Below, piece after piece: positions 32,531 through 63,248 of a DNA stretch of 64,000 bases. The first letter of the stretch is position 1; each line of letters begins with the position of its first letter. The stretch comes from Candidatus Gastranaerophilales bacterium (lineage in GTDB: Bacteria > Cyanobacteriota > Vampirovibrionia > Gastranaerophilales > Gastranaerophilaceae): assembly GCA_944325575.1 (NCBI GenBank), contig CALVAR010000009.1, forward strand, positions 7,761-71,760, written 5' to 3'. The translations under genes and the position numbers were made by a program. The notes beneath the pieces were generated by a model. That model ran no database searches and had not been told where the DNA came from. It saw only the letters and a list, made by a program, of their open reading frames with translations.

Positions 32531-32599
32531 TTATGATTGAAGCTAAGATATGTTTTTTATAAACTAAAGAAAATCGAGTTATTTATAGAGGAAGTATTT

Positions 32600-47303: not shown

Positions 47304-47379
47304 TGGGGCGTCGCCAAGTGGTAAGGCAGCTGGTTTTGGTCCAGCCATTCCGGAGGTTCGAATCCTTCCGCCCCAGCCA
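47304..47379 (+). tRNA. tRNA-Gln (anticodon UUG), CCA encoded
   Basis: Acceptor stem TGGGGCG/CGCCCCA with U1-A72 and discriminator G (typical of bacterial tRNA-Gln). Anticodon stem GCTGG/CCAGC with loop TTTTGGT (anticodon TTG). T-arm GGAGG-TTCGAAT-CCTTC. 3' CCA present. Confidence 0.9.
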
Positions 47380-47516: not shown

Positions 47517-47552
47517 TTTTTCTATTGGACGTTGGATGAGAACCGTAGTTGT

Positions 47553-47577
47553 GTAGGGTGCAATTTATTGCACCACC
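47553..47577. repeat. REP hairpin (family 2), left flank of RAYT
   Basis: GTAGGGTGCAATTTATTGCACCACC; the hairpin is GGTGCAAT/ATTGCACC. It matches the reverse complement of 48141-48165 at 24 of 25 positions. Confidence 0.8.
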
Positions 47578-47595
47578 AATATTCAAACAATCGAT

Positions 47596-48135: not shown

Positions 48136-48140
48136 AAAAT

Positions 48141-48165
48141 CATTTTACAAGATGGTGCAATAAAT
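48141..48165. repeat. REP hairpin (family 2), right flank of RAYT
   Basis: GATGGTGCAATAAATTGCACCCTAC, the inverted partner of 47553-47577. Confidence 0.8.
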
Positions 48166-48524
48166 TGCACCCTACATACTGTAAGCTCAATACTTGACAA
48201 GTATGCGATTGTAGTAAATAATGTAAATACAGGGTGGCAGCTTGCCAAGCTAGCCAACAGCCCTTAGAGGTTTGAACGGTTCTTATCTATTTTGATGAGA
48301 GCCGTTTCTTAATATGAATAGAATCAATAACAATAATATTAAAGTTAAATTGATATTTTCCATATCAGCCCCCTTTCTAGCGGGAACCAACCCGAGGTTT
48401 GAATTAAGTTGTGGTTGTTCCGTTTCGAAAGAGCTGTCTTTTAACCCTGCAGGTATATAATACTATAACCCGCCTTGTGTAGTCTATTCTTGCGCCAATG
48501 TGATTTTAGCTGTGTAGCAGTGCA

Positions 48525-48547
48525 GAGTGCAATAAATTGCACCCTAC
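48525..48547. repeat. Third REP (family 2) copy, same orientation as 48141-48165
   Basis: GAGTGCAATAAATTGCACCCTAC followed by the short tandem GGGCTACGGGC. It sits 21 nt from the stop of the last glycan-locus gene. Confidence 0.7.
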
Positions 48548-48568: not shown

Positions 48569-49486
48569 TTAATAAAATTTAAGAAATTGATACTTCTCTG
48601 AATATATTATCAACTGAGTTTTTGATGCTTCTTGATAAAATTTACCATACTTAATATTATTAGAATCTAGTTTTTCAAATATTAATTTTGCAGTATTTTT
48701 TTCGCCAATTCGTTCTGCGTCGTCAAGTATAATAATAAAATCATTAGCTAAATTTTGCGGAATTAAATCCAGAATATTTGTTCTCGGATAAGTTCTGTTA
48801 AAGCCAAACGGACCATCTATAATAATTAAATCATATTGCACGTTTTCTGTAATTTCCTGTAAGTTGTAATATTTATCATTAGCAGAGTTATTTAAATCAA
48901 ATGATTCTAAGTCTCTTTTAATAATATTTATATTTTCAGCTTCCGGCAGCTCCTCTTTCATTATATTTATCCAATTTTCATCGTGGTCAATAGTTTGAAG
49001 ATTACAATTTGGATTTTTAAATTTTGCATATTGCGCGGTAAGTTTTGTAGTTTGCCCCAATCCAAACTCGAGAATATTCTCTGGTTGTATCTTATCTAAA
49101 ATAATAAGTAAAATATACAAAAATGAATAAGTCGCTGCTCCCTTTGTGGGTATAAACTCTTTATTCTTAATCCAGTCTTTGTTTTGAATCAGATTATTGA
49201 AAATCATTCCTTTAAAGAGTTCTTCATTTTGTTTTTGTATACATTTTAAATATAATTCGATTTTTGTATTAGCTATATTAGAAAAAGTATTGAAATCTTC
49301 TTTCATTGAAGATAGTTTGTCAAATACTGAATTTTCAAGATTCTTGAATTTGTACTCAATAAATGCCTGTTTTTGTTTTTCTTTAATCAGTGTTTTATTT
49401 CTGAGTTTAATTTTTATTCCGCAGATAGTGATTATCTTGTGAATATTTCGATTTTTGACGGAAAAGATTGTTTCTAAAATTTTCAT
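48569..49486 (-). CDS. Class I SAM-dependent methyltransferase-like protein with N-terminal IFSxKN..GIKIK motif
   Basis: ENILEFGLGQTT (motif I-like), DLIIIDGP (post-I/II-like), IIILDDAERIGE. The N-terminus is MKILETIFSVKNRNIHKIITICGIKIKLRNK. Confidence 0.6.
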   Translation of the reverse strand: MKILETIFSVKNRNIHKIITICGIKIKLRNKTLIKEKQKQAFIEYKFKNLENSVFDKLSSMKEDFNTFSNIANTKIELYLKCIQKQNEELFKGMIFNNLIQNKDWIKNKEFIPTKGAATYSFLYILLIILDKIQPENILEFGLGQTTKLTAQYAKFKNPNCNLQTIDHDENWINIMKEELPEAENINIIKRDLESFDLNNSANDKYYNLQEITENVQYDLIIIDGPFGFNRTYPRTNILDLIPQNLANDFIIILDDAERIGEKNTAKLIFEKLDSNNIKYGKFYQEASKTQLIIYSEKYQFLKFY

Positions 49487-49489
49487 TAT

Positions 49490-51697
49490 TTATTCCTTAT
49501 ATTCTAAAATTTCTTTCAGATTTTTTATTGACGTTTGATAAAGGCTGTCCGAATAATTTTTTAAACTATTTTGCATCATATTGTAGTCATTAGCCGGCAT
49601 ATCTATGGCTTTTTTCAACACCTCAGTAAAATCACTATTCTTTTCATAAATTATGCTGTTTTCATCGTTAAATCCGTGTAAGGTCGCAAATTTTTTGTTT
49701 ATTAAACAAGGCTTTGCAAATCCATAAATAAGTTGAAACGAACCAGATGTTCCTGTTGTAATATACCTGTCGTGTTCGGGATTGTCCGGGTCTAGCAAAG
49801 CTAGGAAAAAGTCTGCTTTTTCAAGCTCTTTATACATTTGCTGATAATCTAATCTCCCCTTAAAATCGATAAACGGTCTGATATTCTCCGGAATTGAGTT
49901 CAAGGTACCAGTTCTGGCAATTACTGTTATTTTAAAGTTAGTAATACCTTGTTGTAATAGCTCTCCGACTGAATCTAACAACAAGTTATGATTTTTTCTT
50001 TTATCTTCAATATTGCCAATTACAATAAAATTTGTAATATCATTTTTTCCAGTTATTGCTATATCTCCAAAATAGTGAGAATTTACAACTTTGTATTTAT
50101 CACTGTTCGTTATTGGTAAATTTGCTATTAGTAAATTTCTATAAGAATTATTTCTAAAAGTTCCGGGTCTGTGGTTCATTAAAATCAGTTTATCTTTAAA
50201 TTTTTCCAGCTCTAAATAATTACTTATTGGTATTAATTTTTTAGTTATCGGATCACCGATATATTCTGTATTTATATATATATATTTATATGCTTTAATA
50301 TAATCTGTTTTAAAAAAGTGCCACATTATGTGTGCTGGCATATGATAAACATCTGTTTTTGCATTGTTAAAATTATCAAAAAGTCCCAGCTTATATTCCG
50401 ATTCAGTTATAATGACATCAGTATGGAAACCTAAATCAATAAAATATTTTGCAATTCCGGGCAAAACTTCTCCATGATAATTATTAGGTTCTATAAGTAA
50501 AACAGTATTATCTTTAATGTTTTGATTTATATATTGTTTTAATATTGCTCTTTCTTGCTTTTTAAGAGGTTTTATAAATTTGAATTTTTTGCAACTAATT
50601 GTTAGAATTTTGTAAATGTCTATATTTTCAACAGTAAAAATATTTTTTAATAAATTATTTTTTCTTAGTTTAATCTTTATACCAAAGATTGTTATAATTT
50701 TATGTCGTTTATCATAAGAATTTTTTATTGAAAAAATTTTTTCAATAAAAGACATCGAAGTTTTTTCCGTATTATTTAGAATTCGGCTACAAGAATCCTT
50801 AATACCCGATAATAAAAATTCTTGATTATATCTTTCTTCGTTAAATATCTTTTTTATCTCTTTTTTGTATGTTTTTATAAATTTTTCTCTTCCGATTTGA
50901 TCTAACCTATTATAATTCCAGGTATATTTATCAATCTTTAATGCATTAACAATGAGCATTTTTTCTGGATCTGAAGCATATCTATTTTCTAGTTCATGTA
51001 TTTCATCACACACACAAAATATCTTATTATTGCTTTTCACTGAGGAATTAGTATTATTTGTTCTATAATGATAAAATGCATTCTCTAAATACATAACTTT
51101 TTGGGCAGAAAATATAGTTTTAATTCCAAAACTGGTATCTTGAAAAGATGCTCCCGGAGTTTCTAAAAATCTAATTTTATTTTGTTTTAAAAATTCTATT
51201 TTGTATATTGACGCCCAAATACTCAATGCGCCTCTAAATGTTTTGACATAATTATTAGGATTTATTACTTTTTCATAAATTTCTATTTTGTTAAAAGTTT
51301 CACAAAATTCATTTGTAATATTTGGGGTATCAGAATATCTATAATAATTTCCCTTTATAAAATCTAAATCAAACTCTTTAGCTTTATTATAAAGAGTTTC
51401 ATACATATTAAGCTCAATATAGTCATCTGGTTCAACTATACCTAAATATTCACCTGTAGCACTATCGATACCCGTGTTCATTGAATGACCGTAGCCAGAA
51501 TTAGGCTTATCTATAATTTTTATTCTTGCATCTTTGGACGCATATTCTTTTAAGATTTCAAGTGAATTATCTGTAGAACCGTCATTAACACAAATTATCT
51601 CTATATCTTTCAATGTTTGGTTAACAACGCTATCAAGACATTGCCTGAGATATAGCTCTACATTATATACAGGTATTATTACTGAAACCTTTGGCAT
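49490..51697 (-). CDS. Bifunctional glycosyltransferase: N-terminal GT2 (GT-A) + C-terminal GT-B-like domain
   Basis: MPKVSVIIPVYNVELYLRQCLDSVVNQTLKDIEIICVNDGSTDNS and EPDDY (DxD) for GT2. Two copies of the linker motif lie at aa 316-377. The C-terminal ~350 aa has a Rossmann-like alternating pattern (FIVIGNIEDKRKNH.., TTGTSGS). Confidence 0.8.
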   Translation of the reverse strand: MPKVSVIIPVYNVELYLRQCLDSVVNQTLKDIEIICVNDGSTDNSLEILKEYASKDARIKIIDKPNSGYGHSMNTGIDSATGEYLGIVEPDDYIELNMYETLYNKAKEFDLDFIKGNYYRYSDTPNITNEFCETFNKIEIYEKVINPNNYVKTFRGALSIWASIYKIEFLKQNKIRFLETPGASFQDTSFGIKTIFSAQKVMYLENAFYHYRTNNTNSSVKSNNKIFCVCDEIHELENRYASDPEKMLIVNALKIDKYTWNYNRLDQIGREKFIKTYKKEIKKIFNEERYNQEFLLSGIKDSCSRILNNTEKTSMSFIEKIFSIKNSYDKRHKIITIFGIKIKLRKNNLLKNIFTVENIDIYKILTISCKKFKFIKPLKKQERAILKQYINQNIKDNTVLLIEPNNYHGEVLPGIAKYFIDLGFHTDVIITESEYKLGLFDNFNNAKTDVYHMPAHIMWHFFKTDYIKAYKYIYINTEYIGDPITKKLIPISNYLELEKFKDKLILMNHRPGTFRNNSYRNLLIANLPITNSDKYKVVNSHYFGDIAITGKNDITNFIVIGNIEDKRKNHNLLLDSVGELLQQGITNFKITVIARTGTLNSIPENIRPFIDFKGRLDYQQMYKELEKADFFLALLDPDNPEHDRYITTGTSGSFQLIYGFAKPCLINKKFATLHGFNDENSIIYEKNSDFTEVLKKAIDMPANDYNMMQNSLKNYSDSLYQTSIKNLKEILEYKE

Positions 51698-51722
51698 CGT
51701 TTTTCTCCCTATTACAAACTAT

Positions 51723-53594
51723 TTATTTACTCAAAATTTTTACAGCAACCTGCTCATGCGTATAAACATAACCGATATACTCATATCCTAGCCCCTGAAA
51801 ATTTATAAACTCCTGAAAGGCTTTAAATTCGTGTTCTTGCCAATTGGGATAATTAAAATACTCATCAAAAACAATAATTGTACCAGGAACAATTTTCTCC
51901 TTTAAATTATCAAAAATAGTTTTTGTTGAAGAATATAAGTCACAATCAACATGTATAAAAGCACAATTTTCTGAATTATTTTGATTAAATTCTGGCAGCG
52001 TGTCGTTGAACCAACCTTTAATCAGGGTAACATTTTTATTAACAATAGGAAGTTCAGCAACCTTGAATATTCCTTCTTCAAAACCGCTGCGCCAATCTTC
52101 AGGTAAACCTTCAAAACTATCAAAACCATATACTGTTTTATCGCTTACAATATTTGATATATGGTTAATAGTTTTACCGGAATATACGCCAAATTCTAAA
52201 TATAAGCCGCCAATAGTTACCTGCTTAAGTGCATATGTTAACAAATCTAGATTATTTTTAAAATAATGGACTTTAGGCATATTTTGAATTATATAATTTG
52301 CAGTCTCAATACCCGCAACATCAAATAAATGTTTTCTGATATTCTGTATTGGTTCTTCTGTTACATATTTTTTTAATTGTCTAAGCTCCCAATTATTTAT
52401 GTCCAATTTTTGATTTATGCAATCTAATAGATGTTTTTTTGTTTTGAATTTTATTTTCATTCCTAAACATCTTATTACTTTATGTGCTGATTCATTTTTT
52501 ATAGAAAAAATATTTTGAAGGAATTCTTTTAGCATATTATCTCCTCTTTTTATTTTTATCCTTATCCCCCAAACAGTTATAATTTTGTGTTTTCTATCAA
52601 ACGAATTCTTGAGTGAAAAAATTCGTTCAAACCACTTTTTATACATATATTTTTCAAAAGCAATGGTCTTTAACCATTCATAATGATTTTTATCAAAAAA
52701 ATATTCTTCCGGTTTTTCATATATTTTTAATATAGGAAAGGTTTCGCGCTTTAATCTTTTTATTACAGCTTTGCTTGATTCAGGAGAAATAGTATTTATT
52801 TGCCACCTACAAAAATCTACAATTCTGTTAATAAAGCTTTGTTCGAGAATATTATACAAACCCGCTTTTTCTAAATTTCTTTTTAATGCGTTAGTTGCGT
52901 CTATAAAACAAAATGGAGCTTTATCTCTTGTTCTGGATAACTGATTCTGTCTATGTTGTCTGTGAGTAACAAATATTTTATTTATATAAGATACTCTTTG
53001 GGCAAGAGCTAATGCCATAAAAACAAAAAGCATATCATTTGTGCTGCGTAAGTTTTGAAATTTTAAATTGTTTTTTAACACGAATTCTCTTTTGAATAAT
53101 TTATCCCAACTCCAACCAACAGTAAACTGAAAAACATACAAAGGAAAATCTGAGACAGAAAAAACTTTTTTTGATGGTAACAAATCTTTTTTTATAGACG
53201 TATTATCGTATATTTTTTGTAAACGCATATCAAAATCTTGCGAATCACATATACAAATGTCTAAATTATATTTTTTAGCTTCATTTAGCATATTTTCCAG
53301 CATATCCAATTCAAAAAAATCATCGCTGTCTAAAATTGAGAGATATTCTCCTTGCGCAATTTCCAAACCTTTGTTCCTTGCCGCACCGGCACCTTTATGA
53401 TCTTGCTGCAGTACGGTTATTCTGCTGTCTTTTTTAGCATACTCATTGCAGATAGAAAGGCTGGAATCTGTCGAGCCGTCGTCTACAAGTATTATCTCAA
53501 TATCCTTTAATGTCTGATTAACAACGCTGTTCAGACATTCTCGCAGATATTTTTCGACGTTGTAAACAGGTATAATTACTGAGACTTTAGGCAT
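51723..53594 (-). CDS. GT2 glycosyltransferase fused to a TylF/MycF-like O-methyltransferase
   Basis: MPKVSVIIPVYNVEKYLRECLNSVVNQTLKDIEIILVDDGSTDSS and DSDDF for GT2. Two linker motifs lie at aa 321-385. The C-terminal LEFGVYSGKTINHI, GFDSFEGLPEDW and IHVDCDLYSST match the TylF-type methyltransferase pattern. Confidence 0.8.
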   Translation of the reverse strand: MPKVSVIIPVYNVEKYLRECLNSVVNQTLKDIEIILVDDGSTDSSLSICNEYAKKDSRITVLQQDHKGAGAARNKGLEIAQGEYLSILDSDDFFELDMLENMLNEAKKYNLDICICDSQDFDMRLQKIYDNTSIKKDLLPSKKVFSVSDFPLYVFQFTVGWSWDKLFKREFVLKNNLKFQNLRSTNDMLFVFMALALAQRVSYINKIFVTHRQHRQNQLSRTRDKAPFCFIDATNALKRNLEKAGLYNILEQSFINRIVDFCRWQINTISPESSKAVIKRLKRETFPILKIYEKPEEYFFDKNHYEWLKTIAFEKYMYKKWFERIFSLKNSFDRKHKIITVWGIRIKIKRGDNMLKEFLQNIFSIKNESAHKVIRCLGMKIKFKTKKHLLDCINQKLDINNWELRQLKKYVTEEPIQNIRKHLFDVAGIETANYIIQNMPKVHYFKNNLDLLTYALKQVTIGGLYLEFGVYSGKTINHISNIVSDKTVYGFDSFEGLPEDWRSGFEEGIFKVAELPIVNKNVTLIKGWFNDTLPEFNQNNSENCAFIHVDCDLYSSTKTIFDNLKEKIVPGTIIVFDEYFNYPNWQEHEFKAFQEFINFQGLGYEYIGYVYTHEQVAVKILSK

Positions 53595-54657
53595 TGTTGT
53601 TCCTCTTGTATAAATAGTTATTAAAACAGCGTACAGATTTCTCGTGTCTGTTAAATCGAATACTTATAAACTCTTTCCTGTATATAGATAATTTTTCTAT
53701 TATCAAAGCCAAAAGAGGGAAACATATTAAAAGTTTGAAAAATTTTCGTTCTTCATCTTTTATATATTGATTTGTTTCAACAATATCAGACGACATATTG
53801 TTTATCATTTGCTTTATCAAGCTAAATGCATCTTTTAAATCCTTTATCTTTAACATCCCTAGCACAATATGGATATAGGCAATTTCTCTTTTATACAAAC
53901 ACGCCAATACATTGGCATCCTTTATATCCTGTTGAGTCAGCCATTGGTGAATCTCATTGCTTCTTTTAAACGGGATGTTGTAATCCCTCAGCTGCATTGC
54001 TTCTGTAAAATAAAATTTTCTGTATTTATAAAGTGACTCATCAACATAAACAATTCTATCCGCCAAACACATTGTCTGAACCTGAAAAAGGTTGTCAGTC
54101 CAGCTTGCACCTTTATCTGTTAAAAATTTTATATTATGTTTCTTCAAAAAATCTGATTTATAAATACAGCTCCAGATACTGGGATGAAAATACAAGAACT
54201 CGGGATGCTGATAAATGTTAAAAACACCTTGAGGCAATTCAAATTTTTCATTCCAATTTATTTTTCTGAATTCAGGCGGTTGAAAACATTCCAATACTTC
54301 TTCATATTTGCATTTAGCTATTTCTGCGTTGTTTTCATCAGCTGTTTTTACAAGCTTTTCATACATGTCAGGCTCTATGTAATCATCCGTCTCAACAATG
54401 CCGATGTAGTCACCTGTTGCCGCTTCTATTCCTGCGTTTACGGCTTTCCCATATCCGCCGTTTACCTGATGAATCGGTTTTATTCTCGGATCTTTTGCTG
54501 CATATTCATCCATTATTTTTCCGCAGTTGTCAGGAGAGCCGTCATCAACAGGAATTATTTCAATATCCGTCAGCGTTTGATTGATTACGCTTTCTATGCA
54601 TTGTCGAAAATATTTTTCTACATTATATGTCGGCATTATGATTGAAACTTTAGGCAT
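53587..54657 (-). CDS. GT2-family glycosyltransferase
   Basis: MPKVSIIMPTYNVEKYFRQCIESVINQTLTDIEIIPVDDGSPDNC, ETDDY. I prefer the ATG at 54657, which gives the MPKVS N-terminus shared by all GT2 genes in the locus, over the longer ORF to 54729. Confidence 0.8.
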   Translation of the reverse strand: MPKVSIIMPTYNVEKYFRQCIESVINQTLTDIEIIPVDDGSPDNCGKIMDEYAAKDPRIKPIHQVNGGYGKAVNAGIEAATGDYIGIVETDDYIEPDMYEKLVKTADENNAEIAKCKYEEVLECFQPPEFRKINWNEKFELPQGVFNIYQHPEFLYFHPSIWSCIYKSDFLKKHNIKFLTDKGASWTDNLFQVQTMCLADRIVYVDESLYKYRKFYFTEAMQLRDYNIPFKRSNEIHQWLTQQDIKDANVLACLYKREIAYIHIVLGMLKIKDLKDAFSLIKQMINNMSSDIVETNQYIKDEERKFFKLLICFPLLALIIEKLSIYRKEFISIRFNRHEKSVRCFNNYLYKRNNNA

Positions 54658-54740
54658 GTTGAATAACTCTCTAACTCCCTGTGTGATATAAACATACTTT
54701 TTTATAATAATCGTATGTAAACAATACATGAAAGTTTATA

Positions 54741-54780
54741 ATAAAAAAAGAAATATTTATATCAAATATAAATATTTCTT
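54741..54780 (-). terminator. Rho-independent terminator after ugd (minus strand)
   Basis: AGAAATATTTATAT-CAA-ATATAAATATTTCT gives a 14-bp stem, followed on the minus strand by TTTTTTT. Confidence 0.6.
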
Positions 54781-54815
54781 AAGTAAAATTTTTGATTTTT
54801 ATAAATTTTGAGTAT

Positions 54816-56141
54816 CTAACAGCAGGTCAATGGAGCCAGCTGTTTTTTCCCTATAGAGTAGTATTCAAAGCCTCTTTGCGCCAATCTTTTTGCATCATAC
54901 TGATTTCTGCCGTCAAAGATAACCGGCTCTTTGAGCAGTGATTTAATCCTATCAAAATCAGGACGTCTAAATTCATTCCACTCTGTCAGCAAGAGCATGC
55001 AGTCAGCATCCTCTAATGCTGCATACGCTGATTTTGCATAAGTTATTTTATTGCCAAAAATCATTTCTGCACAGTCAAAGGCTTTGGGGTCGTATGCCTG
55101 AACCTTTGCACCTCTTTCCAAAAGTGCATTGATAATAGTAATAGCAGGTGCCTCTCTCATGTCGTTTGTTTTGGGTTTAAAGGCAAGTCCCCATACGCCG
55201 AAAGTCTTTCCTGAGAGATTTTCGCCGAATCTGTTTAATATTTTTCTGATAAAAATCTGACGCTGTTCTTTGTTTACTTCATCAGCGCTTTGGAGCAGCT
55301 TGTAGTCGCACCCATTGTCTTTTGCTGTTTTTAATAATGCCTTCACGTCTTTAGGGAAGCAGCTTCCGCCGTAGCCCAAACCGGGGAACAAGAACTGCGA
55401 GCCGATTCTCTTGTCAGCACACATTCCGATTCTTACCATTTCTGCGTCTGCCCCGACTTTTTCACATATATTTGCTATTTCGTTTGCATAAGAAATCTTT
55501 ACTGCCAAAAACGAATTAGCTGCATATTTTGTCATTTCTGCAGATTTTACATCCATTATGATAACAGGATTGCCTGTTCTCAAAAACGGTGCGTACAGTT
55601 CCTGCATAATTTCTGTTGCGCGCTGGGAGTTTGAGCCTATTACAACTCTGTCAGGCTTCAAAAAGTCGTCAACGGCTGCGCCTTGTTTTAGGAACTCAGG
55701 ATTTGAAACAACGTCAAACTCTTCATTGGTTTGAGATTTAATTATTTCGGTAACTTTTTCCGCAGTGCCGACAGGAACTGTGGATTTGTCAATGATAACT
55801 TTGTATCCGTTTAATGCCTGCCCTATTGATTTTGCAACGTCATAAACATATTGAAGATCAGCAGAACCGTCTTCGCCCTGGGGTGTACCCACAGCAATAA
55901 AGCATACAAGCGATTTTTGCACCGCCATAGCAAGGTTGTCGGTGAAGGTTAAGCGCCCTTCAGAAACATTTACCTTAATCAGCTCATCCAATCCGGGTTC
56001 GTATATAGGAACAATGCCTTTTTCCAGCTTGGCAAGTTTTTCTGTGTCTTTGTCCACACAAATAACGTCGTTTCCCATCTCAGCAAGGCAAGTACCTGCT
56101 ACCAAACCTACATACCCTGTTCCTATAACACAAATTTTCAT
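54816..56141 (-). CDS. ugd: UDP-glucose 6-dehydrogenase
   Basis: MKICVIGTGYVGLV NAD motif, catalytic GGSCFPKD, and LAFKPKTNDMREAP C-terminal domain block. Confidence 0.93.
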   Translation of the reverse strand: MKICVIGTGYVGLVAGTCLAEMGNDVICVDKDTEKLAKLEKGIVPIYEPGLDELIKVNVSEGRLTFTDNLAMAVQKSLVCFIAVGTPQGEDGSADLQYVYDVAKSIGQALNGYKVIIDKSTVPVGTAEKVTEIIKSQTNEEFDVVSNPEFLKQGAAVDDFLKPDRVVIGSNSQRATEIMQELYAPFLRTGNPVIIMDVKSAEMTKYAANSFLAVKISYANEIANICEKVGADAEMVRIGMCADKRIGSQFLFPGLGYGGSCFPKDVKALLKTAKDNGCDYKLLQSADEVNKEQRQIFIRKILNRFGENLSGKTFGVWGLAFKPKTNDMREAPAITIINALLERGAKVQAYDPKAFDCAEMIFGNKITYAKSAYAALEDADCMLLLTEWNEFRRPDFDRIKSLLKEPVIFDGRNQYDAKRLAQRGFEYYSIGKKQLAPLTCC

Positions 56142-56223
56142 TTATTACTCTCCATAATTGTTATTACTCAAATTTTAGCACAAAACTATTTTTTAATAGT
56201 ATGGTTCAATAAATTACAACATA

Positions 56224-56293
56224 CTATGCAAAATTATTGCGTCATCCTGAGGGTGAAACCCGAAGGATCTAAAGAGAGTAAAGTGCAATAAAT
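56224..56293. repeat. Degenerate scar containing pieces of both repeat families
   Basis: TATGCAAAATTATTGCGTCATCCTGAGGGTGAAACCCGAAGGATC resembles the TIR plus first hairpin of the 470-bp element (TATGTAAAAAATGTCATCCTGAGG...). It is followed by AGTGCAATAAAT, half of REP family 2. Confidence 0.5.
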
Positions 56294-56358
56294 ACAGTAT
56301 ACATGATATTTACAAGCAATAAATACTCAAAAGAAATATTACAGACCGAATTATAAAT

Positions 56359-57285
56359 TTATTTCTTTTTTATAAAAATGTTCCCGCCTAAATTGGGCAT
56401 ATTGTCTTCCACATTGATATAATTTAAGTATGTTCCCCAAAATTCAATACTAAACTTATCGTTATACATTAGAAAAGCTCTTAATAAATAATCTTCATTC
56501 CAAGCTCTATTTTCTTTTATCCATTGTGTTGGATATTCAAAGGGATAAAATATATCGTGAAAATGTACAATTACTCCTTTATTAAGTCTGGGTAGTATTT
56601 CAAAAATAATTTTATTTACATCGCTGTTTAATTTGCTAATATGTGTTGAATCAACTATTAATAGATCATTTTCTTCTAAAGTATCGAACAGTTCTAATGA
56701 AACATCCTGTAGTCTTGTTTTTATAAGCTTTATTTCTTTATCCAAATTATCCCCAAAAGTTTCATATAACCTTGTCGGCCATGGTTCAATAGAAGTAATT
56801 TCTACCGTATTATCCATATAGAGTTTGTTTATATCACTTACAAGACTTGTTGAATATCCCGAACCTATTTCAATAATTCGTTTTGGTTTGTAATGCAGTA
56901 TAAAACAATATAATGAAGTTGCACAACCTCGTGGGTATTGACCATTGTCGCAAAAATATTTAAGATTTTCTGTTTTTGTATCATTCCATATGAAATTTTT
57001 AAAATAATTTTTGAATAAATAATATGTTTGAATTTGTTGTTCAGTATTAAGATTAATAGCGGGTAATGGCCGATTTATATCATATTTTTCAAGATGTTCT
57101 GATATATCCATATCAGATGGAACTGGGGAATAAAAATGTCCTTCTTCAAACATGGCAGGATGATTTTGTGTAAAATTTTGTTTTATTAATGTATCTTGTT
57201 TATATTGATTTTGTAGCTTTTTGTGAATAAAGCAGTAAGGTAATATTTTTGAAACTTCTTTACAAATTTTTTTTAATTTATTCAT
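56359..57285 (-). CDS. Class I SAM-dependent methyltransferase (Methyltransf_24-like)
   Basis: RIIEIGSGYSTSL (motif I), LLIVDSTH, VIVHFHDI. Confidence 0.65.
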   Translation of the reverse strand: MNKLKKICKEVSKILPYCFIHKKLQNQYKQDTLIKQNFTQNHPAMFEEGHFYSPVPSDMDISEHLEKYDINRPLPAINLNTEQQIQTYYLFKNYFKNFIWNDTKTENLKYFCDNGQYPRGCATSLYCFILHYKPKRIIEIGSGYSTSLVSDINKLYMDNTVEITSIEPWPTRLYETFGDNLDKEIKLIKTRLQDVSLELFDTLEENDLLIVDSTHISKLNSDVNKIIFEILPRLNKGVIVHFHDIFYPFEYPTQWIKENRAWNEDYLLRAFLMYNDKFSIEFWGTYLNYINVEDNMPNLGGNIFIKKK

Positions 57286-57297
57286 TTTATACCCTTT

Positions 57298-59427
57298 CTA
57301 TATACATTGCGCAATTAAAACTGTTTCCAGAACAATATTTAAGTCCTTTGGCTTTATTATTTTAAATTTATAACCCAAATTTAAATTATCAATTATCGGT
57401 TTAATGTATTTAAAATCCTGAGAATTATGGTATATACTTATTAATAAGTCAGGTCTTTGCGTTTTAATTGTATTCATTGCACCTCTTATAACGCTTTGTT
57501 CAAATCCTTCTACATCAATTTTTATTAAGCCTACTTGAATATTATTTTGGGCAACATAATTATCAAGTGTATCTGTATGTACGGGATATTCGTCAACGGA
57601 TGTAAAAATTGGTAATATTGAAGAATCAGATTCTCCCAAAGAGACATAAAAAGTTATTTCACTGATTTCATCAGATAATGCGTAATTGTTAGCTTTTATA
57701 TTCTTTAAGTTATTAAGTTCTATAGTTTTTAGTAAGCTTGTGTAATTTTTTTTACTCGGCTCAAATGTATGCACGGTAGAATTTGTTAATGGAGATAATA
57801 CGGGCAAAGAATCCCCAATAAATCCACCAATGTCTATAATATCTAAATTTTCATAATATTGTTTTTTAAATTTATTAATACAATGTTTGTTATAATATAC
57901 AGATGGTTCAAATCTATCTAAAGGTAGTAAATATTGGTCATATGCCCATAGTCCATCTGTTATTTTAATAATTTTAGAATAAAATTTTTCATAGAGTTCA
58001 ATAATTAAATTTTTATATTCTTCATTAATTTGTTTAGGTATATCATTGTTGATTTCGTTTATGTAATTAATTATTTCGTTAACTTGGATTATAGAGTCAT
58101 GGTCTAAACCCTTAATTAGATTCTTGTATTCCTGTTCAGTTATTGTAAAATTTTTGAAATAATGTTTTAAAAAAAAGATTTCTTGTAATTTTAATTTTTC
58201 ATATTCTGTTTTTATAAAGTTATCTATGCGACTTAGTTGTTTTGGCTTATCATTTATTGCATTACTTGTTTTAATATATTCTGTTAATCTTTTATTGCTT
58301 TGTTTTATATCCTTAATCTCATCAATAATAAGTTGAATTTTATTTAGAAGAATTGACATTTTATTCTTTATTTTAATTTTAAAAAATAAAAAGGTTAAAA
58401 CTTTATAATCTTTAATATTTTTTATTGAAAATATGTTTTGTAAAAAAGAATTATATAGTTTATTTTCTATATACGCCTCAAGTTTTTTATATTTTTTTGC
58501 TTTTATTAATTTGAGAATATAGAGATCCGGAGTTTTCAAATCATTTAAATGAATGTTATTTAAAATATTGTTGCACAAATTGTAAGCATATTTTCTTTCT
58601 TCTTTATTATTTAAATGGTGATATGTTGCAACAAACTCCCTATTTAATAATTCTAGAATAAATTTATTTTTATTTACTTCTATATTTTGTTGTTTTAAAA
58701 AATTAAAAACATCTAATACCATTAATATACGGTCATATAAAATTTTATTAATACAATGTTTGCTATAAACATTTGATATTATTGAATCCTCTAAAATTCT
58801 ATAATTATAAAGCATTTCTTGGAATCCAAAATATGTTTTTGAACATAACAAATATTTTATGATAAAAGAGGCGTCTTCACAGCTATATAAATTTTCCGGA
58901 AATCTAATTTTATTATTTTCAATGATATCTTTTTTAAATAGCTTTAACCATAAAGCATAATTTATATTGGAAATTAATGCGGAACTTACTTTTTGTAACC
59001 CAAGTATTTTATTAGAAAAATAATGTTCTGTATCTTTTGTTCTTTGTGTTTCAATATCCGAAATTATATTACAATCGCATGATACCAAGTCTGCATCTGT
59101 TTCTTTTACTGCATCTAGCATTTTTTTACACATATCAGCTTCATACCAGTCGTCGCTGTCACAGAACATAATATATTGTCCGTTGGATTCTTCCAGCGCT
59201 TTATTTCTTGCAACTGCAGGTCCTGAATTTTTTTGTAAAAATATTTTTACTCTTGAATCTTTTTGTGCATATTCATCTAAAATTATATGTGAATTATCTG
59301 TTGAACCATCATTTACACATAATACTTCTATATTTTCATAACTTTGATTTATAAGTGAATCTAAGCATTTTCTTAAATACTTTTCTGAATTATATACAGG
59401 TACAATTATAGAAATCATTTCTGACAT
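57298..59427 (-). CDS. GT2 glycosyltransferase fused to an FkbM-family methyltransferase
   Basis: ISIIVPVYNSEKYLRKCLDSLINQSYENIEVLCVNDGSTDNS and DSDDW for GT2. The linker motif lies at aa 327-356. The C-terminal IIDIGGFIGDS, NNYALSDE and LIKIDVEGFEQSVIRGA are FkbM hallmarks. Confidence 0.8.
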   Translation of the reverse strand: MSEMISIIVPVYNSEKYLRKCLDSLINQSYENIEVLCVNDGSTDNSHIILDEYAQKDSRVKIFLQKNSGPAVARNKALEESNGQYIMFCDSDDWYEADMCKKMLDAVKETDADLVSCDCNIISDIETQRTKDTEHYFSNKILGLQKVSSALISNINYALWLKLFKKDIIENNKIRFPENLYSCEDASFIIKYLLCSKTYFGFQEMLYNYRILEDSIISNVYSKHCINKILYDRILMVLDVFNFLKQQNIEVNKNKFILELLNREFVATYHHLNNKEERKYAYNLCNNILNNIHLNDLKTPDLYILKLIKAKKYKKLEAYIENKLYNSFLQNIFSIKNIKDYKVLTFLFFKIKIKNKMSILLNKIQLIIDEIKDIKQSNKRLTEYIKTSNAINDKPKQLSRIDNFIKTEYEKLKLQEIFFLKHYFKNFTITEQEYKNLIKGLDHDSIIQVNEIINYINEINNDIPKQINEEYKNLIIELYEKFYSKIIKITDGLWAYDQYLLPLDRFEPSVYYNKHCINKFKKQYYENLDIIDIGGFIGDSLPVLSPLTNSTVHTFEPSKKNYTSLLKTIELNNLKNIKANNYALSDEISEITFYVSLGESDSSILPIFTSVDEYPVHTDTLDNYVAQNNIQVGLIKIDVEGFEQSVIRGAMNTIKTQRPDLLISIYHNSQDFKYIKPIIDNLNLGYKFKIIKPKDLNIVLETVLIAQCI

Positions 59428-59433
59428 GATTGC

Positions 59434-61257
59434 TTATTTTTTCCTCCTCAATTTTATTTTTATTCCGAGTATAGTTATGATTTTGTGTGTATTTATGTTT
59501 TTTATAGAGAATATTTTTTCTAAAATAGAATATCCAAAATCTGTCTTGTCCAGATATTTAAAATATTCTTTGCCTACAGAAAGGTCATATTTGCAATTCC
59601 AAGGTTTGCTGGGTGAAGAATAGTGGATGATTACAGGGTTTTTAACTATATCTGCGTATTCTTGTTTAGAAATTGTTTTTAATACAAAATCTTTGTCTTT
59701 CAGAAAAGAAAATTGTAAGTTATATTTTTGAGAAATAAATTTTATTTTATCCTTTAAAGTGTAATTTAATACACATTGATCTACCCAGGTGATTTTATTT
59801 TCATTTTGCAGCTTTATAGTATTTTGGAATAAATTATCAACAATATTATCCTCATTCATTTTTGTAATATTGAATAACATCACACCGGAATTAAAATATT
59901 TATTTACCGCCAATTTTTCTTTAACACCGCAATATTCTACGCATGGTGCCATATCTTCTACTGCTGCTGCATAGTAATTTGTTATATCTGTTTCAAAGAA
60001 ACTTTTTAATGATTTTTTTACAATCACATCACAGTCTAAATATAAAACTTTTTCTAAATGTTTAAATAATTGCGGAATAAGAAATCTGTAATATGCATTT
60101 ATGCTTATATGTTCACAACCATCCGAAATAGGACACATATTAAAATCATTTCTATCAATAGCAATAAATGCTATATTAAAATCTTTTAATTTTTTTAATT
60201 TTGTAAGTTTTTGTTTATAATCCTCATTTATTCCGCTGGTTAAAATATAAAAATTAAACTTTTCTTCTTTATTTGAGTTAATTAGTATAGATGCCATTGT
60301 AGCAGCAAGATGAGGAACATAATTGTTGTCAGAAGAAAAAACTATATTTAATGTGTTTTTATCTGTATTGAAATTTTTCCAGATTTCGCAGGAATTATTA
60401 TTTGCAAATTGCAAATTATATTGTTTTTTCTGATAATCTATTACATCTTTAAAATAATTTGCCCAATGTTCACCGTAATATTTTTTGAAATATATTGCAA
60501 GTTCATCACATTCATTTTCTTTTAACAAATATTGCCATCTATGTGTAAGTAAATTAAAAATATCAAAAATCCTTTTTTTAGATTCACTGTTAATTTTAAC
60601 TGCACCAATATTAGGGAATTGTACATTGTCATTGTATTTTATAAAATTTCCTTGTATTAATTTAGTGCCTTGTAAAACGCTTAAAAGCATATTGTTAGTG
60701 TATTGCATTTTTGACCATTGTTCATCTCTAACAAAAGCATGTAAATTTGTATCATGAAAGACTATTACTGCATCATCTTTTATAAATGGCAAAATCATTA
60801 ATAAATCTAATATTTCCCCCGGATTTGAATGTACAGTATCAATTAGAACAAAATCGATTCCATTTCCAATTTGTTCAATAAACTTGTATGCCATTGCGCC
60901 GGTGAATAGACTCCATTTGTCCTTTAATTCCGGATAATTATCAACATAAAAACCGCTTTGCTTTCCTTTTATTCGATAATGATTTGTATTGTAATCAATA
61001 GAATATAGTTTTGCGCTGCTGTTATTTTTTATGGCATTTAATATAATTATAGAAGACGCGCCGCTGCAAACTCCGAGTTCTAAAATTTTTGTAGGTTGAT
61101 ATCTCAGTAATAATGAATTTAAAAATTCTCTCTCTTCTTTTAACATTTCAGAGAATTGTTCATAACTGTTATCTAAGTTATATAGAACTTGGTTTTCTGT
61201 TTCTATTGGATAAATTAACTCCATATACTTATTTTCACAATTAATTGCAGCTGACAT
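59434..61257 (-). CDS. SAM-methyltransferase (N-terminal) fused to a GT8-family glycosyltransferase, ending in the IFSIKN..GIKIK motif
   Basis: ILELGVCSGASS and VLIDTVHSNPG for the methyltransferase. LNIVFSSDNNYVPHLAATMASIL, YLDCDVIV (DxD) and YFNSGVMLFN for GT8. The C-terminal 31 aa are SILEKIFSIKNINTHKIITILGIKIKLRRKK. Confidence 0.8.
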   Translation of the reverse strand: MSAAINCENKYMELIYPIETENQVLYNLDNSYEQFSEMLKEEREFLNSLLLRYQPTKILELGVCSGASSIIILNAIKNNSSAKLYSIDYNTNHYRIKGKQSGFYVDNYPELKDKWSLFTGAMAYKFIEQIGNGIDFVLIDTVHSNPGEILDLLMILPFIKDDAVIVFHDTNLHAFVRDEQWSKMQYTNNMLLSVLQGTKLIQGNFIKYNDNVQFPNIGAVKINSESKKRIFDIFNLLTHRWQYLLKENECDELAIYFKKYYGEHWANYFKDVIDYQKKQYNLQFANNNSCEIWKNFNTDKNTLNIVFSSDNNYVPHLAATMASILINSNKEEKFNFYILTSGINEDYKQKLTKLKKLKDFNIAFIAIDRNDFNMCPISDGCEHISINAYYRFLIPQLFKHLEKVLYLDCDVIVKKSLKSFFETDITNYYAAAVEDMAPCVEYCGVKEKLAVNKYFNSGVMLFNITKMNEDNIVDNLFQNTIKLQNENKITWVDQCVLNYTLKDKIKFISQKYNLQFSFLKDKDFVLKTISKQEYADIVKNPVIIHYSSPSKPWNCKYDLSVGKEYFKYLDKTDFGYSILEKIFSIKNINTHKIITILGIKIKLRRKK

Positions 61258-62314
61258 CTTTATTTGTAAACCTTTCTCTCAACAATTTAGTCCATCTTTT
61301 TACTCTAAATTTTTTACCGAACAGAATAAAAGTTTTGTCTGTATCTGTGGTGCGAATATCAAACATATCAAAGAAGGTTTTGTGCTCATATTTAAAAAGC
61401 AGGTGTTTTAGCTTTTGGTAATTAGACATTTTTAATAATTCCAATAGCTCAAATTGTCCTTTTACAAACACCAAAAATTCTTCTATATCCCTTTTGTATT
61501 TCTTCCTTTGCTCTTCATCCTCTGCATAACGCCAATAGTGTATAGAACCTCCGAGGATATGATTTGTTGTAGCTGTTTTTAGTCTTTGTGAGATATTCTT
61601 ATACTTATCTGTTGTACAAAGATATCTGTAAGCTGTTAAATCATTTTGTATGCAATTGTCATGGTTTGTTGCCGCATCTTTCCTGTACTGTGTATAAAAA
61701 TACAGACCCTCTGGTATAAAAGAATAATCTGGTTTTGCATAATATGACAAAAGGCAGAATATTATATCTTCCGCATTTTTTATTCCTTCAGGGAATCTTA
61801 TATTATTCTTAATTAAAAAATCTTTTTTAAAAGCTTTGTCCCAAATGAAAATCTGTAAAGCAAGCCAATTTTTTAAATTAATCTTTAAATTGCGCTCAAG
61901 TCTGTTTAATAAATAAACATATTCATCCGTTTTAACAATTTTTCCGTCAGAAAGAGAATTGTGCCCCCACATTACAATATCGGGATGCTCTGTGTTGATT
62001 TTTTCAACAACCTTTTCACACAGAGTCAAATCATACGTGTCATCAGGATCAATAAACATGATGTATTCGCCTTCTGACGCATTTATGCCCGCATTTCTTG
62101 CAGCGGAAACGCCTTGATTTTGTTGGTCAATTATTTTAATTCTGTTATCTTTTTGTGCATAATCCTTTAAAATTTGCAAAGAATTGTCCGTTGACCCGTC
62201 ATTTATGCAAATAATTTCAATATCAGAAAATGTTTGATTAATAACACTTTCCATAGCAGCCGGAAGATAGTCCTGTACATTATATGTCGGCATTATTATT
62301 GATATCTTAGGCAT
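61241..62314 (-). CDS. GT2-family glycosyltransferase
   Basis: MPKISIIMPTYNVQDYLPAAMESVINQTFSDIEIICINDGSTDNS, DPDDT. The start at 62314 is preferred by analogy with the other GT2 genes; it overlaps the XRE gene stop by 8 nt. Confidence 0.8.
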   Translation of the reverse strand: MPKISIIMPTYNVQDYLPAAMESVINQTFSDIEIICINDGSTDNSLQILKDYAQKDNRIKIIDQQNQGVSAARNAGINASEGEYIMFIDPDDTYDLTLCEKVVEKINTEHPDIVMWGHNSLSDGKIVKTDEYVYLLNRLERNLKINLKNWLALQIFIWDKAFKKDFLIKNNIRFPEGIKNAEDIIFCLLSYYAKPDYSFIPEGLYFYTQYRKDAATNHDNCIQNDLTAYRYLCTTDKYKNISQRLKTATTNHILGGSIHYWRYAEDEEQRKKYKRDIEEFLVFVKGQFELLELLKMSNYQKLKHLLFKYEHKTFFDMFDIRTTDTDKTFILFGKKFRVKRWTKLLRERFTNKDVSCN

Positions 62315-62657
62315 GTTGGTCGGCTCTCCTCTTAGACAAAATTTCAAGCATTTTAAGGCTTGTCAAAACATCCTCAGAACTCATATTCTTTAATAATTCC
62401 AAAATTTTAGCTTCATTTTCGCTGGTTGTATGCTCCGATATCATCAATACATCCGAGAGATCAAATTTGAGTACTTCAGATAGTTTCAGATAGGTAATAA
62501 ACTTTGGCATATATGTGCCGTCTTCGAGTTTGCCTATATGCCGTGTGCTAAGACCTGTTTTTTGTGCAAGCTGCTCTTGTGTCATATTCAGTGCTTTTCT
62601 CTGCTTTTTTATCAAAAAAGATAATGCCTCAGCCGCAGATTTTTCGTCTATCACCAA
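62307..62657 (-). CDS. XRE-family HTH transcriptional regulator, first gene of the glycan operon
   Basis: LIKKQRKALNMTQEQLAQKTGLSTRHIGKLEDG is a classic HTH_3 motif. TTG/GTG start. The stop overlaps the first GT2 gene. Confidence 0.75.
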   Translation of the reverse strand: MVIDEKSAAEALSFLIKKQRKALNMTQEQLAQKTGLSTRHIGKLEDGTYMPKFITYLKLSEVLKFDLSDVLMISEHTTSENEAKILELLKNMSSEDVLTSLKMLEILSKRRADQHA

Positions 62658-62686
62658 TATTTCCCCTGAATTTATTAATGAATTTC

Positions 62687-62825: not shown

Positions 62826-62846
62826 AAAAATCATTAAGGGTTTTTG

Positions 62847-63188
62847 ATGAATAAAAAAGATGTCGGAAGGAAAATCAAAGAGTTTAGAAATCTGCAGGGG
62901 TTGACGCAGGCAGAGCTGGCAGAAGCCGTGCATATGCATGAAAAACAAATTTCCCGTATAGAGGCGGGTGTCCATTTCCCCACATTTGATAATTTTATGA
63001 AGATTTTGACTGTACTCAATGTAGAAATGAAAGACTTTGATATGTCTCAAAAGGTAGAAAAAAATTCTTTAAGAAAAAAGACCCTAAAGATTATTCAAAG
63101 AGCCAATAACAAAGAATTAAAATTTTATGCATCCGTACTGGAAGCGATGCAAAAATGCCTGGACGAAACAGAAGAAACTGTCAAATAA
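62847..63188 (+). CDS. XRE-family HTH transcriptional regulator (divergent paralogue)
   Basis: IKEFRNLQGLTQAELAEAVHMHEKQISRIEAG is an HTH_3 motif. The post-HTH segment (P.F..F.K.L..L) matches that of the divergent neighbour. Confidence 0.75.
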   Translation: MNKKDVGRKIKEFRNLQGLTQAELAEAVHMHEKQISRIEAGVHFPTFDNFMKILTVLNVEMKDFDMSQKVEKNSLRKKTLKIIQRANNKELKFYASVLEAMQKCLDETEETVK

Positions 63189-63248
63189 AATATTTTCCTA
63201 TATTTAACTTATTTATATAAAGATTTTATTAAAATTTGCCTTATTTTA

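Follow-up and report, generated by a model that had tools for sequence, protein, structure and literature searches.

The lipooligosaccharide (LOS) outer-core loci of Campylobacter jejuni, Neisseria and Haemophilus are clusters of cytoplasmic glycosyltransferase (GT) and sugar-modifying genes that include no gene for an initiating transferase, a flippase or a polymerase. They encode GT2 and GT8 family enzymes, have low GC and consist of recombining cassettes in a conserved frame. In the WbdD-type coiled-coil terminators of O-antigen synthesis, a methyltransferase is attached to a long helix. Surface-glycan determinants are usual targets of host immunity and phages. Gut Melainabacteria (Gastranaerophilales) are common in herbivores and in non-industrialised human guts and have yet to be cultured; to our knowledge nothing is known of their surface chemistry, and a search of the literature brought up no account of glycan loci in this group. 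WsaE of Geobacillus stearothermophilus carries SAM O-methyltransferase and GT2-type domains on one polypeptide; it is soluble, is encoded in a tightly packed, low-GC glycan locus and acts on a rhamnan in a Wzm/Wzt ABC-transporter pathway, where methylation caps the chain (PMC2943079). In E. coli, the soluble GT2 enzyme WaaH (YibD) decorates the LPS core with glucuronate at heptose III, using UDP-glucuronate from Ugd (bioRxiv 10.1101/536201, citing Klein et al.).

The locus described here lies in a 64,000-nucleotide stretch of DNA (the window) from a gut Gastranaerophilales MAG, which is 2.02 Mb in size, is 99.4% complete and contains genes for LPS. Positions 48569-62657 are filled by ten minus-strand ORFs (Table 1). 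Nine encode enzymes, in agreement with the nine co-oriented genes of the original prediction; the tenth encodes an XRE regulator. The domain tally is five GT2, one GT8, one GT-B and five SAM methyltransferase domains plus ugd. Pfam scans and structure predictions uphold the predicted content of at least seven GT domains, five methyltransferase domains and ugd, and all family assignments held, including two that are weak by HMM; this supports a role in glycan biosynthesis. GT2 is matched in five proteins with Pfam E values of 1e-34 to 1e-41 and GT8 in the 607-aa fusion at 6.6e-50, while the FkbM domain also matches TIGR01444 (E 2.7e-30). Methyltransf_24 is above its Pfam cut-off in the 308-aa protein and in the N-terminal half of the 607-aa fusion, and TylF/Methyltransf_24 is found in the 623-aa fusion.

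Table 1. Features of the glycan locus and its borders (positions in the window)
Feature	Position	Strand	Description
tRNA-Gln	47304..47379	+	ARAGORN; borders locus on the pfp side
IS200-like/RAYT element	47552..48547	-	transposase gene 47596-48135, Y1_Tnp E 2.4e-11
305-aa methyltransferase	48569..49486	-	beta-meander motif, helix, class I SAM O-methyltransferase domain distantly like plant GXM/DUF579
735-aa fusion	49490..51697	-	GT2, two tandem motif copies, then GT-B (family without Pfam or NCBIfam model)
623-aa fusion	51723..53594	-	GT2, two tandem motif copies, helical linker, TylF/Methyltransf_24 O-methyltransferase
GT2 beside ugd	53587..54729	-	one C-terminal hydrophobic segment; 94.7% identical in nearest species
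ugd, UDP-glucose 6-dehydrogenase	54816..56141	-	all three UDP-glucose dehydrogenase domains; 42% GC
gap upstream of ugd	56142..56358		217 nt; degenerate REP-like copy 56204-56224
308-aa Methyltransf_24 methyltransferase	56359..57285	-	Pfam above cut-off
709-aa fusion	57298..59427	-	GT2, one motif copy, long low-complexity linker, FkbM-family methyltransferase
607-aa fusion	59434..61257	-	Methyltransf_24 methyltransferase, retaining GT8, C-terminal motif copy
GT2	61241..62347	-	degenerate C-terminal motif copy
XRE-family HTH regulator (HTH_3)	62307..62657	-	first cistron of leftward operon; 72% identical in nearest species
divergent XRE-family HTH regulator	62844..63188	+	96% identical in nearest species

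Only cytoplasmic transferases and modifying enzymes are found in the locus by Pfam/NCBIfam scans of the ten genes and hydropathy analysis. The hydropathy scan predicted no membrane segment in seven of the nine enzymes and no polytopic protein; the exceptions are the GT2 beside ugd, with its single segment, and the 607-aa fusion, whose methyltransferase domain contains two hydrophobic stretches. Within each cassette, genes overlap or are at most 25 nt apart. The GT2 N-termini had been called near-identical. Four of the five do begin MPK(V/I)S; the first 60 residues are however 56-81% identical pairwise, and beyond them identity is 24-34%. Probable true starts of two GT2 genes are the MPKVS codons near 54657 (53587-54729) and MPKIS near 62314 (61241-62347). 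A promoter and terminator scan of this AT-rich DNA found promoter-like sites no more often than in shuffled sequence.

GC is 29.0% in the locus (27.7% without ugd), whereas equally large windows average 35.6% (SD 1.5) across the genome; no other 14-kb window has a GC content as low. GC3 of the seven lowest locus genes is 0.17-0.23, against 0.30 (SD 0.04) genome-wide. The locus is more AT-rich than the genome at large, with the exception of ugd; by eye it had been judged more AT-rich than the flanking core genes. On the left, the RAYT transposase gene has inverted 24-nt REP copies on both sides and a third copy at 48527-48547 (repeats I7, I15 and D7); this element marks where the variable region is bounded. 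The idea that the locus is a prophage or seroconversion module was rejected, since phage and integrase genes are absent and a RAYT with REPs is all that is present.

Genus members were compared using ugd, in place of pfp, as the synteny anchor. The locus is kept downstream of pfp in one of ten genus members; other contigs mostly end or differ. ugd is present in 26 of the 28 genomes of the genus. It is a core gene of the genus and the anchor of the locus, and together with the adjacent GT2 gene it forms a conserved backbone. Genus members share 89-97% identity in pfp and 67-97% in ugd. In comparison with the nearest species, identity is 90% over 53367-56194, which covers ugd and the adjacent GT2, and 84% over 62302-63191; the right edge of the ugd-GT2 block is at about 56200. 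The cassettes 56195-62301 and 48569-53366 are exchanged relative to this species, and at their edges identity drops to about 45% within 100 nt. The first 76 or so codons of the 623-aa fusion are inside the conserved block. The description of the locus as a mosaic is justified by these sharp recombination edges, one of which falls within a GT2 gene, in its conserved 5' portion. The GT and methyltransferase cassettes on either side of ugd-GT2 are thus replaced between species. The Methyltransf_24-GT8 fusion has a best genus match of 52% over half of its length, and low-GC GT and methyltransferase genes of differing content adjoin ugd in 12 of the 15 genus members that were inspected. A divergent XRE pair is likewise found at the head of two related loci. 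The locus is atypical in composition and is not conserved core, and the family assignments are intact; neither of the two grounds named for rejecting the original prediction therefore applies.

Enzyme content, missing initiation, flippase and polymerase genes, the GT2 and GT8 families, low GC and a conserved frame are all shared with LOS outer-core loci, and as in those loci content varies within the frame, here between species. Several features differ. The heptosyltransferase, sialic-acid genes and homopolymeric phase-variation tracts are missing (a search of the locus for such tracts found none). Methyltransferases are far more numerous, and most are fused to transferases. The recurrent junction motif of about 30 aa and the Melainabacteria lineage also set this locus apart from them, and lipid A-core attachment is here presumed from the genes.

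The absence of initiation and export genes noted in the original prediction extends beyond the window. Whole-genome family scans placed no Bac_transf, Glycos_transf_4, Wzy_C, Polysacc_synt, ABC2_membrane, ABC_membrane or NTP_transferase gene on its contig. Bac_transf was not found anywhere in the 99.4%-complete genome, and neither was ABC2_membrane (Wzm-type exporter), in a search whose control was positive in 14 of 14 genomes. Single Wzx-like, WecA-like and Wzy_C/WaaL-like genes are present, no two of them on one contig. Since genes for an initiating transferase, a flippase and a polymerase are all missing from it, the locus is not a Wzx/Wzy-dependent O-antigen or capsule cluster. The organism makes LPS with a lipid A-Kdo core: a WaaA Kdo transferase gene is found in the window (32537-33874), five GT9 heptosyltransferase-family genes are present in the genome, and the Wzy_C/WaaL-like gene is in keeping with this. 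Two MsbA-type transporters are encoded outside the locus. At least five other GT loci, likewise chiefly of soluble enzymes, give the genome a scattered, LOS-like layout. Five relatives encode, beside ugd, a polytopic membrane protein about 500 aa long, whose distant paralogue in this genome (29-32% identity) is PMT_2/ArnT-like. Such a protein beside ugd fits periplasmic decoration of LPS with uronate.

Among NCBIfam models, the GT8 and GT2 domains come nearest to LPS-core enzymes, in every case under the equivalog cut-off. GT8 is closest to PRK15171, an LPS 3-alpha-galactosyltransferase. The GT2s score best against PRK10073, which we take to be the E. coli YibD/WaaH model. The likeness to the Ugd and WaaH pair lies in soluble GT2s, ugd alongside and this best model; in contrast to WaaH, the locus GT2s, at 130-154 bits, fall far short of the 423-bit equivalog cut-off.

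The locus is probably the species-variable part of an LPS-linked glycan pathway in gut Gastranaerophilales. Its product is best read as an oligosaccharide that varies between species, is O-methylated, probably contains glucuronate and is assembled in the cytoplasm on an acceptor linked to LPS; we infer the acceptor, the product, the order of reactions and the role of methylation. The seven GT domains (five GT2, one GT8 and one GT4-like GT-B) would add sugars singly on the inner side of the cytoplasmic membrane. Glucuronate from the resident Ugd would probably be among these sugars; its use by the locus transferases is suggested by linkage to ugd, which as a core gene may also serve other pathways. 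The five SAM-dependent O-methyltransferase domains would methylate the added sugars, and three of them share a polypeptide with the glycosyltransferase that presumably acts before them. The enzyme families make a heavily O-methylated, glucuronate-containing glycan a reasonable expectation; methylation could also be partly chain-capping and not dense. The lipid acceptor would be encoded elsewhere in the genome. It may be lipid A-core, in the manner of LOS, flipped by an MsbA-type transporter. Alternatively, it may be an undecaprenyl-linked primer made by the WecA-like enzyme, in which case the Wzx-like protein would flip the product and the WaaL-like protein would ligate it. The ugd-GT2 pair and the XRE regulator pair would form the fixed frame, and exchange of the two cassettes between species by recombination would alter the surface glycan. 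A point against LPS linkage is that no waa or GT9 gene is found inside the locus.

The same enzymes might instead build an undecaprenyl-carried oligosaccharide for proteins (flagellin, pilin, S-layer or SLH) or for capsule or exopolysaccharide, with the Wzy_C protein as a PglL-type O-oligosaccharyltransferase; indeed, Wzy_C could be a protein O-oligosaccharyltransferase instead of WaaL. The WecA-like, Wzx-like and Wzy_C genes are single copies apart from the LPS genes, and a related locus of another Melainabacteria genome adjoins an SLH-domain protein and flagellar export genes. Flagella are frequent in Gastranaerophilales (bioRxiv 10.64898/2026.04.24.720558), and WsaE, the best-studied GT-methyltransferase fusion, acts on an S-layer glycan (PMC2943079). 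However, flagellin, pilin and S-layer genes are absent beside the locus and the genome has no ABC2-type exporter; the curated models nearest to the GT8 and GT2 domains describe LPS-core enzymes, and ugd is linked to ArnT-like proteins in relatives. This alternative is therefore considered unlikely, though it is the strongest of those weighed against LPS linkage.

An intracellular polymethylated polysaccharide, comparable to the mycobacterial methylmannose and methylglucose polysaccharides, would need neither lipid carrier nor exporter, which agrees with the lack of export and initiation genes in the locus and with the ratio of five methyltransferase to seven transferase domains. Structurally, the GT-B domain also comes closest to an enzyme of methylmannose polysaccharide (MMP) synthesis, ManT (7qsg), but at 10% identity the likeness is that of GT4 folds in general. 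No stretch of the genome deviates more in composition than this locus, which is exchanged with sharp edges between sister species; the pattern is typical of exposed structures and not of a cytoplasmic polymer with a housekeeping role. Seven different transferases with three folds point to a heteroglycan instead of a homopolymer, and no MMP-type hydrolase was seen. Mycobacterial MMP clusters are conserved housekeeping loci that pair a ManT-type GT4 with cognate 1-O and 3-O methyltransferases and a hydrolase; the present locus departs from them in its methyltransferase families and its hypervariability, the ManT likeness being at fold level. An intracellular product is consequently very improbable. 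Slightly less probable still is that the methyltransferases are chiefly chain terminators of an ABC-transporter-dependent O-antigen pathway, with the 305-aa protein setting chain length: its predicted single 70-residue helix recalls coiled-coil rulers and methyl capping is established for the GT-fused methyltransferase of WsaE (PMC2943079), but the genome has no Wzm-type (ABC2_membrane) permease, no kinase domain is present, and five methyltransferases of four families are more than capping requires.

The two domains that are weak by HMM were assigned by structure. In the C-terminal half of the 735-aa protein, Glyco_trans_1_4 is matched at E 0.006 (17 bits, cut-off 27), and sequence-profile matches to the PDB are marginal (E 0.035 or worse). 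Its AlphaFold model (pLDDT 88) matches the GT4-type GT-B enzymes ManT, PimA, BshA, MshA and WaaG with probability 1.0 and TM 0.55-0.64; the domain is thus GT4-like in fold alone, as sequence does not place it in GT4 (Glycos_transf_1). The family comprises about 1,500 cluster representatives. It has unusual invariant histidines, some members are fused to cytidylyltransferases, and it may transfer a phospho-group instead of a sugar.

The 305-aa protein matches IRX15/GXM under the cut-off (E 2.7e-4) and has marginal sequence-profile matches to the PDB. Its model (pLDDT 94.5) matches cation-dependent class I O-methyltransferases and consists of a three-strand beta meander (residues 8-29), the single long helix and the catalytic domain. 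In its family, the model for plant GXM (DUF579; Pfam PF21729) gives the most consistent matches (26 of 35 members, compared with 12 of 35 for Methyltransf_24). A GXM-like methyltransferase in a locus with ugd suggests uronate methylation. Unlike the situation in plants, the context is bacterial, and the matches stay under the Pfam cut-off (best E 5.8e-6) and cover the SAM-binding N-terminal part only. The predicted long helix is shared with WbdD; in contrast to WbdD, there is no kinase domain, the genome has no ABC2 exporter and the helix is N-terminal of the catalytic domain.

Domain scans found four two-domain fusions with the domain orders claimed: GT2-GTB, GT2-TylF, GT2-FkbM and MT-GT8. 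Three are GT-methyltransferase fusions similar to WsaE, and in their translations the SAM-binding glycine motifs (ILELGVCSG, YLEFGVYSG, IIDIGGFIG) and the transferase acidic motifs (SDD, PDD, DCD) are intact. Unlike WsaE, they are found in a genome without a Wzm-type transporter, and the methyltransferases of the locus belong to the Methyltransf_24, TylF, FkbM and GXM-like families. Read by eye, the linker of the 709-aa fusion is helical. Unfused versions of the fused transferase-methyltransferase pairs are present elsewhere in the genome.

The junction motif, a beta meander of about 30 aa, has eight copies; a search with an HMM built from these found it in this genome solely at this locus. 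PF22674 (C2185-like_N) was rejected as the junction motif because a direct scan of the window proteins gave no match; it appears in annotations of homologues, where it looks like a distinct Rossmann-like piece at the N-terminus. A tentative possibility is that the locus is a domain-shuffling system which diversifies surface glycans, with modules that share the motif, recombine at conserved joints and dock through it. New genes and fusions would then arise by recombination at GT2 5' ends and at motif-coding segments; one exchange edge was mapped to the former. The tandem double motifs in two fusions would be joining scars between a GT2-motif gene and a motif-helix-enzyme gene, and the motif might allow modules to dock together as an assembly line.

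The kind of locus is ordinary, and the general picture of how such loci work is unchanged; its new detail lies in the lineage, in the enzyme modules and in the sharp points of exchange. Gut Melainabacteria would carry a fast-evolving, species-specific surface-glycan determinant, comparable to those of well-studied mucosal bacteria. The locus is also a source of candidate enzymes for unusual O-methylated, uronate-containing sugars, and it exposes an unmodelled GT-B family. The natural fusions and their unfused counterparts may guide the matching of transferases with modifying enzymes. In an exact-protein look-up of ugd, the sole other scaffold was 100% identical and is probably from the same source.

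The locus is occupied by ten ORFs (window 48569-62657), all on the minus strand and transcribed from right to left (see table). Genes overlap or lie no more than 25 nt apart inside each block; larger spacers (86 and 217 nt) are found only at ugd. The glycosyltransferase and methyltransferase families of the original prediction are borne out: the strong assignments are all above Pfam cut-offs with concordant NCBIfam matches, and the two weak ones are supported by structure prediction.

Genes of the locus, in transcription order (window positions), and polytopic proteins near ugd in related loci (positions in each locus)
Feature	Position	Strand	Basis or remark
XRE-type regulator	62307-62657	-	first in transcription order
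GT2	61241-62347	-	Pfam/NCBIfam
Methyltransf_24-GT8 fusion	59434-61257	-	Pfam/NCBIfam
GT2-FkbM fusion	57298-59427	-	Pfam/NCBIfam
Methyltransf_24 protein	56359-57285	-	Pfam/NCBIfam
217-nt gap upstream of ugd	56142-56358		
ugd	54816-56141	-	Pfam/NCBIfam
GT2	53587-54729	-	Pfam/NCBIfam
GT2-TylF fusion	51723-53594	-	Pfam/NCBIfam
GT2 + GT-B-like fusion, 735 aa	49490-51697	-	GT2, Pfam/NCBIfam; GT-B, predicted structure
305-aa methyltransferase-like protein	48569-49486	-	sub-cut-off IRX15/GXM match; predicted structure
~500-aa polytopic protein	L024:10733-12253		membrane prediction
~500-aa polytopic protein	L027:7717-9252		membrane prediction
~500-aa polytopic protein	L031:2473-4005		membrane prediction
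~500-aa polytopic protein	L022:16374-17855		membrane prediction
~500-aa polytopic protein	L023:4712-6280		membrane prediction

For the 305-aa protein, a match below cut-off was obtained to IRX15/GXM, a model of plant glucuronoxylan methyltransferases; across its family, 26 of 35 members match this model and 12 of 35 match Methyltransf_24. Its predicted structure (pLDDT 94.5) contains a three-strand beta meander (8-29), a single helix (31-101) and a Rossmann domain, which matches cation-dependent class I O-methyltransferases. Given these family and structural matches, all five predicted methyltransferase domains are supported. Each methyltransferase family in the locus has members known to O-methylate sugars; their substrates include a macrolide deoxysugar (TylF), Nod-factor fucose (the FkbM-family NoeI) and glucuronate (GXM). 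Beyond domain identity, the functions given for the locus are predictions.

In the 735-aa protein, the predicted GT-B-like domain takes up the last 351 residues (window 49493-50545). Its match to Pfam Glyco_trans_1_4 is below threshold (E 0.006), while an AlphaFold model built from a 19-sequence alignment (pLDDT 88, pTM 0.88) matches the GT4-type transferases ManT, PimA, BshA, MshA and WaaG (probability 1.0, TM 0.55-0.64, ~10% identity). The GT-B fold is thus confirmed, in a family for which Pfam and NCBIfam have no model. More than 140 homologues were found, most without any Pfam annotation; fusion partners elsewhere are GT2, GT4, GT8, GT10 or cytidylyltransferase domains. Among 1.84 billion cluster representatives searched by profile, 1,463 belong to the family at E <= 0.001, and 972 of them reach E <= 1e-10. 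His, Asn and Asp are frequent among the invariant residues (E19, N21, H24, E26, H125, N155, H157, D245, D252, H258, R260); because of these residues and the cytidylyltransferase fusions of some relatives, phospho-transfer instead of glycosyl transfer is conceivable for the domain.

A motif of ~30 aa (IFSIKN..HKIITI.GIKIKLR) occurs in eight copies in the locus, each at a domain junction or terminus; there is no copy in the rest of the genome. In the 305-aa protein model it forms the three-strand meander ahead of the long helix. The variable loci of relatives contain it in the arrangements GT2-motif, Methyltransf_24-motif, GT8-motif and motif-FkbM. Two fusions have tandem double copies of unlike types: the first is lengthened by an insertion of two residues, and the second is similar to the motif found ahead of methyltransferase domains. 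This may be the trace of a GT2-motif gene joined to a motif-helix-enzyme gene. Two of the genome's other glycosyltransferase loci, on contigs C4 and C21, contain unfused versions of the pairings fused here: the neighbours GT2 and FkbM, and likewise Methyltransf_24 and GT8, on C4 (C4:91008-94829), and GT8, FkbM and GT2 on C21 (C21:131-4021).

The locus is the lowest-GC 14-kb window of the 2.02-Mb genome. Its GC content is 29.0% (27.7% without ugd) against a mean of 35.6% (SD 1.5) in windows of equal size, and for most enzyme genes GC3 lies at 0.17-0.23, compared with 0.30 (SD 0.04) genome-wide; ugd has 42% GC. The AT-richness read by eye, with ugd as the exception, therefore holds. A tRNA-Gln and a RAYT transposase with REP copies mark the left border. 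Further left, a 426-aa ORF between hom-thrC and pfp (window 43332-44612) has no Pfam match at E <= 1e-5. On the right, an ORF starting MCRIGAIK (window 63307-63999) runs past the window end, and its in-window part has no Pfam match; in L124, a scaffold of identical sequence, the whole gene codes for 369 aa and precedes Glu_synthase and GXGXG-domain genes. The ORF probably encodes the amidotransferase subunit of a split glutamate synthase, which would make the right flank core metabolism. The divergent XRE-family regulator pair (window 62307-63188) also heads glycosyltransferase operons in related loci L021, L120 and L124, with a separate transferase operon behind each regulator in L120; the pair apparently serves related glycan loci as a conserved control or border element.

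Far from being conserved core, the locus varies within the genus. The pfp gene is 89-97% identical (18-27 species genomes), and 26 of 28 genomes carry ugd (67-97% identity); the best match of the Methyltransf_24-GT8 fusion within the genus is 52% over half its length, and its best full-length relative among 5.8 billion proteins is 40% identical. Low-GC transferase/methyltransferase genes flank ugd in 12 of the 15 members examined, with content differing between members and also including GT61, WbsX, radical SAM/B12, ATP-grasp and further methyltransferase genes. In more distant Gastranaerophilales, ugd stands on its own.

The nearest species retains ugd (96%), the adjacent GT2 (94.7%) and the rightward (96%) and leftward (72%) XRE regulators, and has other genes at both intervening positions. 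At DNA level, 53367-56194 is 90% identical and 62302-63191 is 84% identical; identity drops to ~45% within 100 nt at every edge of these blocks. The left edge falls ~76 codons into the GT2-TylF gene, within the GT2 5' segment; this is the most conserved part of the GT2 paralogues (first 60 residues 56-81% identical, remainder 24-34%). The ugd gene is part of a fixed frame and no insert. Between the same two species, conservation of the C4 glycan locus reaches 98%; cassette replacement is therefore local and recent. Most of the genus lacks the C4 locus. The only other contig found with the locus has identical sequence.

Five species of the genus encode a ~500-aa protein with 8-10 predicted membrane segments that adjoins ugd or lies a few kb away; those of L024, L027 and L031 have no Pfam match. 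The genome studied here has only a 29-32% identical paralogue, which matches PMT_2 (C21:6725-8167). The protein is a candidate periplasmic uronate transferase of ArnT-like type.

On the most economical reading of the locus, a methylated hetero-oligosaccharide is built up step by step in the cytoplasm on a lipid-linked acceptor whose genes lie outside the locus; the acceptor would be either lipid A-core or a carrier primed by WecA. The assembly (38 contigs, 99.4% complete) contains single Wzy_C (WaaL-like), Wzx-like and, besides MraY, WecA-like genes, two MsbA-type half transporters, and six sugar-nucleotidyltransferase genes, all on contigs other than the window's; Bac_transf genes and ABC-2 (Wzm) permeases were both absent in a whole-genome family scan. 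Four observations speak for a product linked to LPS: the organism has an LPS gene set (WaaA Kdo transferase in the window, five GT9 heptosyltransferase-family genes in the genome); the curated NCBIfam models nearest to the GT8 and GT2 domains, all matched below equivalog cut-off, are LPS-core enzymes; a polymerase and an ABC-2 exporter are lacking; and polytopic proteins adjoin ugd in five relatives, with a distant PMT_2/ArnT-like paralogue here. A glycan attached to protein or made as a capsule is less favoured. An intracellular polymethylated polysaccharide and methyl capping within an ABC-dependent pathway are the least likely.

Glycan loci of such logic are well known. WsaE is a known transferase-methyltransferase fusion (PMC2943079). 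No such glycan locus was found in the literature for the Gastranaerophilales lineage; what is new here is this lineage, the dense and varied set of fused methyltransferases, the mapping of the cassette edges, the GT-B family without a model and a junction motif restricted to the locus within its genome.

The genome has at least five further glycosyltransferase loci, encoding mainly soluble enzymes. Its second most AT-rich part includes another run of soluble glycosyltransferase-like genes with low GC (25-31%; C8:62498-69764). In the related metagenomic locus L120 (L120:12246-16022), a TupA-type ATP-grasp gene, two radical SAM genes and one more methyltransferase gene lie directly upstream of ugd, with DegT aminotransferase, dehydratase/epimerase and nucleotidyltransferase genes downstream; this gene set hints at uronate amidation and C-methylation in sister loci.
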